From the NCBI GenBank assembly GCA_029240105.1, contig JARBTR010000004.1, forward strand, positions 78,620 through 142,619: DNA of 64,000 nt, in the 5' to 3' direction. The notes beneath the pieces were generated by a model. The model was not told the DNA's origin. It did not search any database and was given only the letters and a program-made list of their open reading frames with translations. The stretch is from Bacillales bacterium (lineage in GTDB: Bacteria; Bacillota; Bacilli; JARBTR01). The position numbers were made by a program, and so were the translations under genes. This document shows, piece after piece, positions 1,265 through 32,776 of this stretch (positions are counted from its first letter, which is position 1; each line of letters opens with the position of its first letter).

Positions 1265-1490
1265 CGCAAAAAAGTCCCTCTTAGTTAAAAGAGGGACGAA
1301 TTAGTAAATTAATCCGCGGTTCCACCCACGTTTCATGCACGGCTGCATGACGCTCAAAACAGGATAACGGTCGTAGCCGTCAGTTATTTCATCTGCATAT
1401 GCAAAATCCCTAACTGAAGTTCAAAGGTGGTAAATGTTCTGTTTGTTGAGAAGCTTTCACCGTTGCTTCTCTCTCTAAAAACAATTCCAG
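1265..1490 (-). promoter_or_regulatory. T-box leader (Thr specifier) of thrS
   Basis: On the minus strand: AGAGAG and GGTGAAAGC stem I elements (about 1476-1453), candidate specifier ACC followed by A (1431-1428), T-box sequence GGGTGGAACCGCGG (1327-1314), then a terminator hairpin. Confidence 0.8.
1268..1297 (-). terminator. T-box attenuator terminator
   Basis: gtccctctt (1274-1282) pairs with aagagggac (1289-1297): 9-bp stem, 6-nt loop, followed on the minus strand by U6 (1273-1268). Confidence 0.8.
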
Positions 1491-1652
1491 GAACATTCTT
1501 GTCCTTATCGATACTTTTTATCATTATAAACGATATTTTATCCATTGGTTCCTAAAAAATCAAGTTCGGTATGAAACTTTTTTTAAAAATGGACAAACTA
1601 CATTCCAGACAGACTAGATTCTCATTTTGATCTAAACTAAGGAGATAAAATA

Positions 1653-18875: not shown

Positions 18876-19042
18876 TTTTCACCCCTATTCTTACAACTAA
18901 TTTAATATTTTATTTTATTTTTAGGACTATTATTATACCTTTACAAAGAATACAAACTAATTGTTTTCAAAATAATTCATTAAAATTACATCAGGTTTTC
19001 ATGAGGCTGTCATAATGACAATCCAAGGACATGTATATACTT

Positions 19043-19063
19043 AAAAAAAACCAGTAAACTGGT
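19043..19063 (-). terminator. weak terminator-like hairpin + U8 at the left end of foldback element copy 1
   Basis: ccagtaaactgg (19051-19062) followed on the minus strand by T8 (19050-19043). The stem is only 4-5 bp. Confidence 0.35.
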
Positions 19064-19512
19064 CTTTTTAAAACATTTGAGCAGATTTCTTGGATGAATT
19101 CCCGCAGAGCTTTCCTGTGGGTGAGCACCTGAGCCTAAGGTGATGGGAGTCGAACCCATAGGGTTTAAACGTTGTGATTTCACTGCTCTCGTTGTTCTCG
19201 TCGGGCGCAATATACTCGATATTACTTCCACCTCGGCCAAGATAGCAATGAAATCACTTTGATTAAACTCAAAGACCTTTTCTTGTTTCTTTCGAAGCAA
19301 GTCAAGGCAGAAGTGACGAAGCGTATCGAACATACGCTAGGAACCTCTAACACAGAATTGCAAAGATAGAAACAGGAAAAGGCCTATGGGTTCGACTCCC
19401 ATTACCTTAAGGTCTCAGGCACCCACTTTCCCACGGGAGTCCTGCGGGTTTCATTGCCAAAAAATCCATATTGTTCATCCTTCTAAAGCTTCTGGTAACA
19501 ATAGTTGAGGCC
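19051..19512. repeat. GC-rich foldback element, copy 1 (candidate ~465-nt ncRNA or MITE-like repeat)
   Basis: Aligns without gaps to 32245-32706 (37 differences in 462 positions, hand count). Internal inverted-repeat arms at 19087-19163 and 19383-19466. About 45% GC by hand count. Confidence 0.85.
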
Positions 19513-19518
19513 AAAAAA

Positions 19519-19547
19519 ATTATCATCCCTTAGAATTCGCTGTCTAA
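19519..19547 (-). promoter_or_regulatory. candidate sigma-A promoter reading into foldback element copy 1
   Basis: Minus strand reads TTAGAC (19547-19542), 17 nt, GATAAT (19524-19519). The -10 box ends 6 nt before the repeat boundary. Copy 2 has TATAAA at the equivalent place (32720-32715) but a poor -35. Confidence 0.3.
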
Positions 19548-23989: not shown

Positions 23990-24061
23990 AACAAAAAACA
24001 TACTAAGATTAGCGGTGTAGAACTATGACGATAGTTCTACACCGCTAATCTTAGTATGTTT
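23990..24061 (-). terminator. 31-bp perfect palindromic hairpin, probable terminator of fxsA
   Basis: 23996-24026 pairs perfectly with 24031-24061 across the loop gacg. On the minus strand a U-run follows (tttttt g). Confidence 0.6.
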
Positions 24062-32128: not shown

Positions 32129-32236
32129 CTAATCCACCTCCCCAAATAATTTTGAATTCTAATTTTATAAAAAAACAGCATACTTCAGTTTAATTTTTAG
32201 CTTTTTTCATATGTCGGTGACAAAATTACTAATTTT

Positions 32237-32257
32237 AAAAATAGCCAGCAAGCTGGT
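32237..32257 (-). terminator. weak terminator-like hairpin at the left end of foldback element copy 2
   Basis: ccagcaagctgg (32245-32256). The minus strand then reads ctattttt. Confidence 0.3.
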
Positions 32258-32706
32258 CCTTTTAAAACATTTGCGCGGATGTTTTGGATGAATTCCCGCA
32301 GAGCTTTCCTGTGGGTGAACGCCTGAGCCTAAGGTGTTGGGAGTCGAACCCTTAGGGTTTAATCGTTGTGATTTCACTGCTCTCGTTGTTCTCGTCGGGC
32401 GCAATATGATCGATATGACTTCCTCCTCGGCCTAGATAGCAATGAAATCACTTAAATTAAACTCGAAGACCTATTCTTGTTACTTTCGAAGCAAGGCAAG
32501 GCAGAAGTGACGAGGCGTATCGAACATACGCTAGGAACTTCTAACGCAGAATTGCAAATAAAGAAACAAGAAAAGGCCTATGGGTTCGACTCCCTTCACC
32601 TTAAGGTCTCAGGCACCCACTTTCACACGGGAGTCCTGCGGGTTTCATTGCCAAAACATCCATATTGTTCATCCTTCTAAAGCGTCTGGCACAAATAGTT
32701 GAGGCC
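32245..32706. repeat. GC-rich foldback element, copy 2
   Basis: Gapless match to 19051-19512 at a constant offset of 13194 nt (about 92% identity), in the same orientation. Confidence 0.85.
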
Positions 32707-32776
32707 CAAAAAAATTTATACTTTCTTATCTTTTTAAAAAAACCATTTGACCTAATACTTGTATCAGATCAACATG

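Follow-up and report, generated by a model that had tools for sequence, protein, structure and literature searches.

We report here a 479-bp repeated unit that occurs twice in a 64,000-nt stretch of DNA from a Bacillales bacterium (assembly GCA_029240105.1, contig JARBTR010000004.1, positions 78,620 to 142,619 of the forward strand; hereafter the window, from whose first letter all positions are counted). Copy 1 lies upstream of mdh and copy 2 upstream of dnaE. Our reading, which we hold with a probability of about 75%, is that the unit is a non-coding, non-autonomous mobile DNA repeat and that its 270-bp core is a miniature inverted-repeat transposable element (MITE). A first-pass annotation of the same sequence had proposed either a structured non-coding RNA (ncRNA) gene or a MITE-like foldback repeat. 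The second proposal is borne out, in that the insertions are absent from relatives and the core shares its ends and its plan with a family that duplicates TA.

A repeated unit with empty sites in relatives

Across 479 nt, the two copies agree at 91.4% of the positions and are aligned without a single insertion or deletion. Identity between them is 84-97% in each sub-segment. Since it is high throughout 19042-19520 and only 35-40% in the flanks beyond, the repeated unit is defined as 19042-19520, with copy 2 at 32236-32714. The sister copy mentioned in the first-pass annotation is thereby located, while the size given there, about 470 bp, has to be revised to 479 bp. The GC content of the interior of copy 1 is 0.42-0.46 versus 0.24-0.25 in the left flank, which agrees with the earlier description of a segment of about 45% GC in AT-rich surroundings. 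Copy 1 opens with A8 (19043-19050), the palindrome ccagtaaactgg (19051-19062) and T5 (19065-19069). Its inner arms, at 19137-19162 and 19383-19408, form 25 Watson-Crick pairs and one G-T. These features, like the central hairpins, had all been described before and are present in the sequence at the positions given; the inner inverted repeat was also recovered independently by a repeat search of the window. No further copies of the arms occur elsewhere in the 64 kb. A Logan assembly of this organism is interrupted within the element, as expected because multi-copy repeats break assemblies.

To place the two loci among relatives, the flanking genes were compared. The best named protein matches are to Geobacillus and Aeribacillus for Mdh (77-78%) and to a 'Bacillales bacterium' metagenome-assembled genome (MAG) for NrnA (81%). 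The DUF441-mdh spacer is 693 nt long here versus 231 nt in the relatives' locus L065, where Mdh is 91% identical to that of the window and the spacer has its own terminator, and about 219 nt in L066. Likewise, the nrnA-dnaE spacer measures 648 nt here, 261 nt in L068 and L069, and 141 nt in L070. The L065 spacer aligns solely over the mdh promoter region, and, of the sequences that were formally tested, neither the L068 spacer nor the region upstream of mdh in L064 has significant similarity to the element, including its outer arms. The element is missing from the relatives' spacers at both loci, which marks it as an insertion; the spacer comparison shows both window copies to be lineage-specific insertions. 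Its absence from close relatives at both loci also means that it is dispensable.

In L064, whose Mdh is 93% identical, the place of the element upstream of mdh is taken by a different GC-rich and strongly folding segment (L064:20-135), where the contig also ends. This segment has no Rfam match and no similarity to the element. The spacer upstream of mdh may be a hot spot for insertion.

Table 1. Features of the repeated unit (window positions; the strand column is empty where none applies)
Feature	Position	Strand	Remarks
Whole repeated unit, copy 1	19042..19520	-	Between DUF441/ytwI-like gene (stop 19569) and mdh (start 18875)
Sister copy 2	32236..32714	-	Between nrnA-like gene (stop 32777) and dnaE (start 32128)
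Core element, 270 bp	19138..19407	-	TA at 19136-19137 and 19408-19409; matched by the Clostridia-family covariance model
Left terminal inverted repeat of core, AGGTGATGGGAGTCGAACCCATAGG	19138..19162		Reverse complement of tRNA-like T-arm
Right terminal inverted repeat of core, CCTATGGGTTCGACTCCCATTACCT	19383..19407		T-arm form, ATGGG-TTCGACT-CCCAT
Internal hairpin domain A	19163..19268		Closing helix 19163-19187 with 19244-19268; minimum free energy (MFE) structures
Internal hairpin domain B	19276..19382		Closing helix CCTTTTCTTGTTTCT 19276-19290 with AGAAACAGGAAAAGG 19368-19382; MFE structures and family model
Outer imperfect inverted repeat, left arm	19078..19135		Pairs with 19410-19482
Outer imperfect inverted repeat, right arm	19410..19482		97% identical between copies
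Promoter-like site, TAGACA-16-GATAAT	19519..19546	-	Only the -10 overlaps the repeat end
Terminator-like hairpin with U8 tail, A8-CCAGTAAACTGG-TC-T5 (plus strand)	19043..19069	-	3' end of the unit in minus orientation

The core and a related family in Clostridia

The two ends of the core (19138-19162 and 19383-19407) are complementary at 24 of 25 positions, and the T-arm form of the right end consists of a 5-bp stem and a 7-nt loop. Between the ends lie two hairpin domains, the second of which (B) contains the inner hairpin GCGTAT-CGAAC-ATACGC. TA is read from the sequence on both sides of the core and would be the product of a target duplication, as in the family described below.

We scanned one genome per species, 185,579 species in all, for the arm cores GAGTCGAACCC and GGGTTCGACTC at a distance of 215-245 nt. 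The scan returned 61 loci versus about 2 expected by chance. Ten of these are chance pairs of tRNA or tmRNA genes, and about 51 represent one coherent family of intergenic elements of about 277 bp in MAGs of Clostridia. The hosts include Oscillospiraceae and Acutalibacteraceae, among others, and some MAGs hold several copies. The elements are often wedged between open reading frames (ORFs), with TTA...TAA ends that often supply or overlap the stop codons. Near-identical elements are found at different loci in related MAGs, such as L031 and L055. No neighbouring protein recurs among the family loci, where the neighbours are diverse housekeeping genes.

The target duplication was sought by joining the flanks of each element and searching for the joined sequence at other loci. 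Filled locus L054 reads ...CCCCGTT-TA-GGCTGACG...CGTCAGCC-TA-ACAAATA..., and the matching empty locus L030 reads ...CCCCGCT-TA-ACAAATA.... From this comparison, the element is 277 bp long, has inverted ends and duplicates TA. Duplication of TA on insertion is shown for the Clostridia family by this one filled/empty sequence pair, and TA flanks both ends in 37-41 of 48 family members. A 2-bp TA duplication points to the IS630/Tc1-mariner superfamily, and we infer a transposase of that type.

The 11-mer invariance among the scanned members was imposed by the search pattern. Members reached through their interior (L033:5127-5383 and L053:361-643) carry quite different arms; hence the T-arm sequence is not constant in the family. 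One member, L008, lies near a tRNA-Leu gene whose T-arm and acceptor sequences differ from those of the element, so that the element's ends were not copied from the neighbouring tRNA. Neither the unit nor two Clostridia members had a BLASTN match in the phage and plasmid collections, and the arm pattern occurs once only in 2.9 million viral contigs. A metagenome scan with arms of the window type found nothing, and hence no further copies of that type. Literature searches by arm sequence and by keywords returned only tRNA papers and general MITE reviews, and the T-arm-ended family of Clostridia has apparently not been described before.

Some loci show how members are composed. L053 holds two family elements in tandem (L053:361-643 and L053:636-912), one with arms that lack T-arm likeness, and L031:5865-5965 is a copy of just one internal hairpin domain, which has an unrelated inverted repeat of its own. 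Family members seem to be assembled from hairpin modules, which recombine or nest. Against the family model described below, one subfamily (L009:2328-2609, L011:6414-6695 and L056:5611-5892) also scores high on the reverse strand (170-179 versus 212-221 bits), which hints at a relationship between the two internal domains.

As far as the usual marks of a MITE are concerned, terminal inverted repeats are present for the core and absent for the 479-bp unit. Both core (270 bp) and unit (479 bp) are small and lack coding capacity, and the copies are dispersed, with two in 64 kb and empty sites in relatives. Known bacterial MITEs are characterised by inverted ends and a TA duplication, and their transcripts contain very stable stem-loops; they are usually shorter than 200 bp, and the 270-bp core is larger than that (PMC2229807).

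Family fold and placement of the core

By RNAalifold and pair counting, the family folds into a closing helix of about 28 bp (helix 1, 96.6% paired across 48 members) and two internal helices, each enclosing a hairpin domain; domain A of the window core corresponds to one of the latter. The covariation score of the family is 0.56, versus 0.08-0.14 in controls with slid partners. The alifold energies of the two strands, -174 and -172, leave the strand assignment undecided. Sub-domain alignments by MAFFT and RNAalifold that included ragged extra members lost the outer helices and were not used.

A covariance model built from the 48 Clostridia members matches both window copies over its full length: 19133-19412 with 102.5 bits (minus strand) and 97.7 bits (plus strand), E ~1e-28, and 32327-32606 with 99 and 88.4 bits, respectively. 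Over 31-33 nt, the arms of the window core share 88-90% identity with those of L042. In addition, the motifs TGCCTTG, CTGYGTTA and GGAAG-hairpin-GCGnCGACGA align with the family on the minus strand of the window. We read the window core as a distant member of the T-arm-ended Clostridia MITE family, with which it shares its ends.

Several observations weigh against this reading, or against MITE as a sufficient account. True family members score 170-280 bits in sense and 90-180 bits in antisense orientation, so that the roughly 100 bits of the window copies equal the antisense scores of true members. The sequence profile of the family interior gives no match in the window, and the similarity between the window core and the family is found mainly in the arms. 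Placement thus rests mainly on the arms, their spacing, the plan of a closing helix plus two domains, and the short motifs. A TA beside an AT-rich boundary can arise by chance. No transposase or autonomous element with matching ends was found in the window or, by a search for arm pairs at the spacing of an insertion sequence (IS), in the fetched loci. Because the unit reaches beyond the core and has no inverted ends of its own, simple MITE transposition fails to explain how the whole unit was copied. Finally, the internal helices of the family vary in a compensatory manner: 92% of cells are paired versus 37-46% with slid partners, and 45 of 63 family pairs have double-sided changes. In the aligned orientation and with near-duplicates removed, G-U exceeds A-C (74:41); in the same orientation, 33 of 46 members have a co-oriented gene downstream (33:13).

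These features of the family hint at a constraint beyond transposase binding. They may come from selection acting on hairpins, be it in transcripts or in single-stranded DNA, or else from template switching, by which quasi-palindromes tend to be corrected. We consider it improbable that the T-arm-ended family, the window core included, is a mobile element selected at the RNA level. If it were, the conserved closing helix and two domains, the G-U excess and the co-oriented upstream placement would all be explained. The transcribed element would then be a signal for processing or insulating operons, such as a cleavage site for RNase III or a tRNA-like one for RNase P, or else a stabiliser of transcript ends. 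It would be a bacterial counterpart of tRNA-derived short interspersed elements (SINEs), rewiring mRNA boundaries wherever it lands.

Signals for transcription and coding

The unit itself folds very stably as a single strand, with energies of -203.5 kcal/mol (minus) and -193 kcal/mol (plus) versus about -120 kcal/mol for shuffled sequences. This could be the mark of an RNA. The first-pass annotation had indeed suggested a structured ncRNA gene of about 465 nt, read from the minus strand as a self-contained unit; in its full form, this reading gives the gene a sigma-A promoter, an intrinsic terminator and two paralogous copies. However, the fold favours neither strand (z = -13 each). Moreover, the 41 differences between the copies break base pairs far more often than they keep them: in the MFE folds of either copy and either strand, the number of pair-breaking substitutions is 8-18 and that of pair-keeping ones 5-10, and on the fold of copy 1 the counts are 17-18 broken versus 6-7 kept. 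About one third of the substitutions fall at unpaired positions, which is the expectation from the unpaired fraction. The two window copies drift regardless of the fold.

The signals expected at the ends of such a gene were examined as well. A promoter-like site upstream of copy 1 scores 10 of 12, and the hairpin with U8 that had been noted at the far end is present and is kept, with changes, in copy 2 (CCAGCAAGCTGG). The promoter had been given as TTAGAC-17-GATAAT on the minus strand; a site is found there (as TAGACA-16-GATAAT), but its -35 lies in the unique flank outside the repeat, and there is no promoter-like site at copy 2. Both copies are co-oriented with the flanking genes, and in each case the upstream gene lacks a terminator of its own. 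The Clostridia family lends the ncRNA gene some further support through the compensatory changes in its internal helices, through an excess of G-U over A-C in the orientation that matches the window minus strand, and through a family model that scores 5-10 bits better on that strand. Nevertheless, the Clostridia members sit tightly between ORFs and have no conserved flanks able to hold a promoter or terminator.

Nor does the element belong to a known RNA family. At the gathering score, Rfam 15 finds only a T-box elsewhere in the window; at E<=10, the element region has chance-level matches only, and ARAGORN finds no tRNA or tmRNA in the window. The first-pass annotation had seen no match to T-box, 6S, tmRNA, RNase P or SRP, and the Rfam scan of the region agrees; a 6S-like reading was rejected on the same ground. 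Ten Clostridia loci gave no Rfam match either. Given that the substitutions ignore the fold, that the -35 is missing in copy 2, that both strands fold alike and that the element is absent from close relatives at both loci, a dedicated ncRNA gene with its own promoter is unlikely, and this part of the earlier proposal is not upheld.

Two reading frames overlap the unit. An ORF of 107 aa (19010-19333, minus strand) is called as a gene in the public JGI annotation. It has zero homologues among 5.8 billion proteins, where only itself was found, and it is not kept in copy 2; by these comparisons it is a spurious gene call. The other is a minus-strand frame of 20 codons, open in both copies (19409-19473 and 32603-32667), which in copy 1 runs from an ATG at 19473 to a TAA at 19411-19409 and reads MDFLAMKPAGLPWESGCLRP. 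A Shine-Dalgarno-like GAAGGA lies 8 nt upstream, and the stop codon is made by the TA at the core boundary (the left-hand TA in minus orientation). Since both differences between the copies in this frame change the amino acid (F/V and W/C), it is probably not a gene. The earlier statement that no ORF is conserved in the sister copy holds for the 107-aa ORF, which copy 2 does not have, but not for the 20-codon frame.

An outer hairpin around the core

The unit extends past the TA-flanked core by 96 nt on the left and 113 nt on the right, and an imperfect inverted repeat continues outward from the core to about 19078 and 19482. The ends of the 479-bp unit share no inverted repeat, the outermost 36-38 nt on each side not being mutually inverted. 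When the core and one TA are deleted in silico, 207 nt are left, which form a single long hairpin whose tip carries the TA; on the minus strand, the terminator-like hairpin and U-run come after this core-less hairpin. Because the 207 nt fold in this way, the unit looks like a MITE nested in an older hairpin-forming repeat. Alternatively, the MITE targets the hairpin tips of such repeats. No solo outer sequence was found in the window or in the metagenome collection, which was scanned with a 22-mer of the outer arm, and for this reason the nesting stays an inference.

A further type of element is of interest here. Palindrome-associated elements derived from IS200/IS605 have subterminal hairpins and no inverted ends, cause no duplication, insert 3' of a fixed tetranucleotide and depend on a Y1 transposase. 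The 479-bp unit likewise has a subterminal hairpin at one end and no inverted ends; the minus-strand flank that precedes it is ATAA in one copy and TAAA in the other, these being two copies only.

Two improbable readings: inverted arms as a switch and T-arms as RNA

The inverted arms would also suit an invertible DNA switch (inverton), in which recombination between them flips the 220-bp interior and thereby switches mdh or dnaE. Inverted repeats of 25-30 bp stand about 220-230 bp apart in intergenic positions upstream of genes, and each arm holds the palindrome ATGGG-7 nt-CCCAT, which has the symmetry of a recombinase core site; integrases of the tyrosine recombinase type target the T-arms of tRNA genes. 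However, there is no recombinase gene within 4 kb on either side of either copy, and in four orthologous pairs of Clostridia loci the interior always points the same way with respect to the flanks. Gain and loss concern whole elements and involve a TA duplication, and the interior itself forms hairpins and has no conserved promoter. As phase variation of mdh or dnaE is implausible too, we regard the switch as very improbable.

The look of the ends suggests yet another possibility, namely that the element is a tRNA-like RNA, or one resembling tmRNA or Y RNA, whose T-arm-like ends serve as a substrate for enzymes that process or bind tRNA. Together with its flanking stem, the sequence GGGTTCGACTCCC makes a textbook T-arm; after it comes an 8-bp stem made from the two core ends. 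In L022, the homologous arm has local Rfam matches at E<=10 to T-arms only, one to that of tmRNA (E = 0.0013), the other to the Deinococcus Y RNA in its tRNA-like part (E = 3.3). Yet such a T-arm must compete with a 27-bp perfect duplex to the other arm, and it is imposed by the search pattern, the members found through their interior having different arms. For the window element, ARAGORN reports no tRNA or tmRNA, Rfam gives no match above chance at any threshold, and no rsr/Ro or rtcB gene lies nearby. We find this RNA hardly credible.

Proposed mechanism and consequences

Taken together, the evidence favours a non-autonomous mobile DNA repeat with a MITE core, whose history we propose as follows. 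The core, with terminal inverted repeats of 25-30 bp, would be moved in trans by a cut-and-paste DDE transposase of IS630/Tc1-mariner type, which would bind both ends, excise the element and insert it at a TA, with duplication of the TA. Such a core would have inserted into the apical TA of an older hairpin-forming repeat of about 207 nt. The resulting 479-bp composite would then have been copied, and would now stand at two or more intergenic sites in this uncultured, Bacillales-like genome. Transcripts that read through from the upstream gene would contain a very long stem, probably a substrate of RNase III, and would end at the unit's own hairpin and U-run; from the layout of the genes and signals, such read-through RNA is a plausible side effect, of a kind described for Correia elements.

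Only two points are unusual: the ends look like tRNA T-arms, and the Clostridia family conserves a fold of three helices. On these two rests a small residual chance that the element functions as RNA. With an island that resembles structured RNA explained as mobile DNA, both a false ncRNA annotation and a false 107-aa gene can be averted, and a widespread MITE family in gut and rumen Clostridia, with T-arm-like ends of unusual length, is brought to light. Repeats of this kind break metagenome assemblies and mark recent genome change between close relatives; they can also bring terminators, promoters or RNase sites beside housekeeping genes such as mdh and dnaE. More generally, where a palindromic mobile element is concerned, covariation alone is no proof of an RNA gene.

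Other features of the window

The T-box leader found by Rfam (RF00230, 106.6 bits) lies at 1289-1520 (minus strand) and fits a Bacillota origin of the window. At 23996-24061 there is a perfect 31-bp inverted repeat with a 4-nt loop (AAACATACTAAGATTAGCGGTGTAGAACTAT and its reverse complement). It lies about 130 nt upstream of an sdhA/frdA-like start (23863, minus strand), and no U-run follows it.

Comparison with known systems

The statement of the first-pass annotation that no transposase or reverse transcriptase is nearby holds within 4 kb on either side. A retron msr-msd RNA was considered and rejected: no reverse transcriptase gene is adjacent, the neighbours being DUF441, mdh, nrnA and dnaE in the window and diverse housekeeping genes in Clostridia. 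Integron attC sites, whose core sites have the polarity 5'-RYYYAAC ... GTTRRRY-3', were rejected as well; the family ends read 5'-TTAGGC ... GCCTAA-3', which is the opposite polarity, and 277 bp is well beyond the usual size of attC. With tmRNA and the Y RNA YrlA, the canonical T-arm (GGGTTCGACTCCC, 5-bp stem) is the sole common part. The element differs from both in having no full model match and no partner genes, and in carrying the motif twice as an inverted DNA repeat.

Among repeats, CIR of Caulobacter and Brucella has a predicted RNA with two hairpin arms and a linker, a structure that is conserved across species (PMC2229807). Unlike the core, CIR lacks terminal inverted repeats and a closing 5'-3' helix, and it has a GANTC methylation motif, which is absent in the element. 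RUP of pneumococcus, a MITE of a Firmicute, uses TA as its insertion site, and the transposase of the IS630-family element IS630-Spn1, whose ends RUP copies, is thought to move it in trans (PMC2229807). It measures 107 bp and has 9-bp inverted ends; the present family, in contrast, has no IS630-like partner in the window or in the fetched loci.

Correia/NEMIS elements of Neisseria are non-coding, multi-copy and intergenic, with inverted ends of 24-26 bp, TA at the termini and TA duplication; the long stems in their transcripts are cut by RNase III, and they can lend promoter or terminator signals to neighbouring genes (PMC2229807). They form a single stem-loop of 107-155 bp, whereas the core and its family measure 270-277 bp and consist of a closing helix and two internal hairpin domains. 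The two kinds of element share no sequence similarity, and the hosts are Neisseria on one side and Bacillota on the other. What Correia/NEMIS and the core have in common is that they are non-coding, intergenic and multi-copy, and that they carry terminal inverted repeats with TA.

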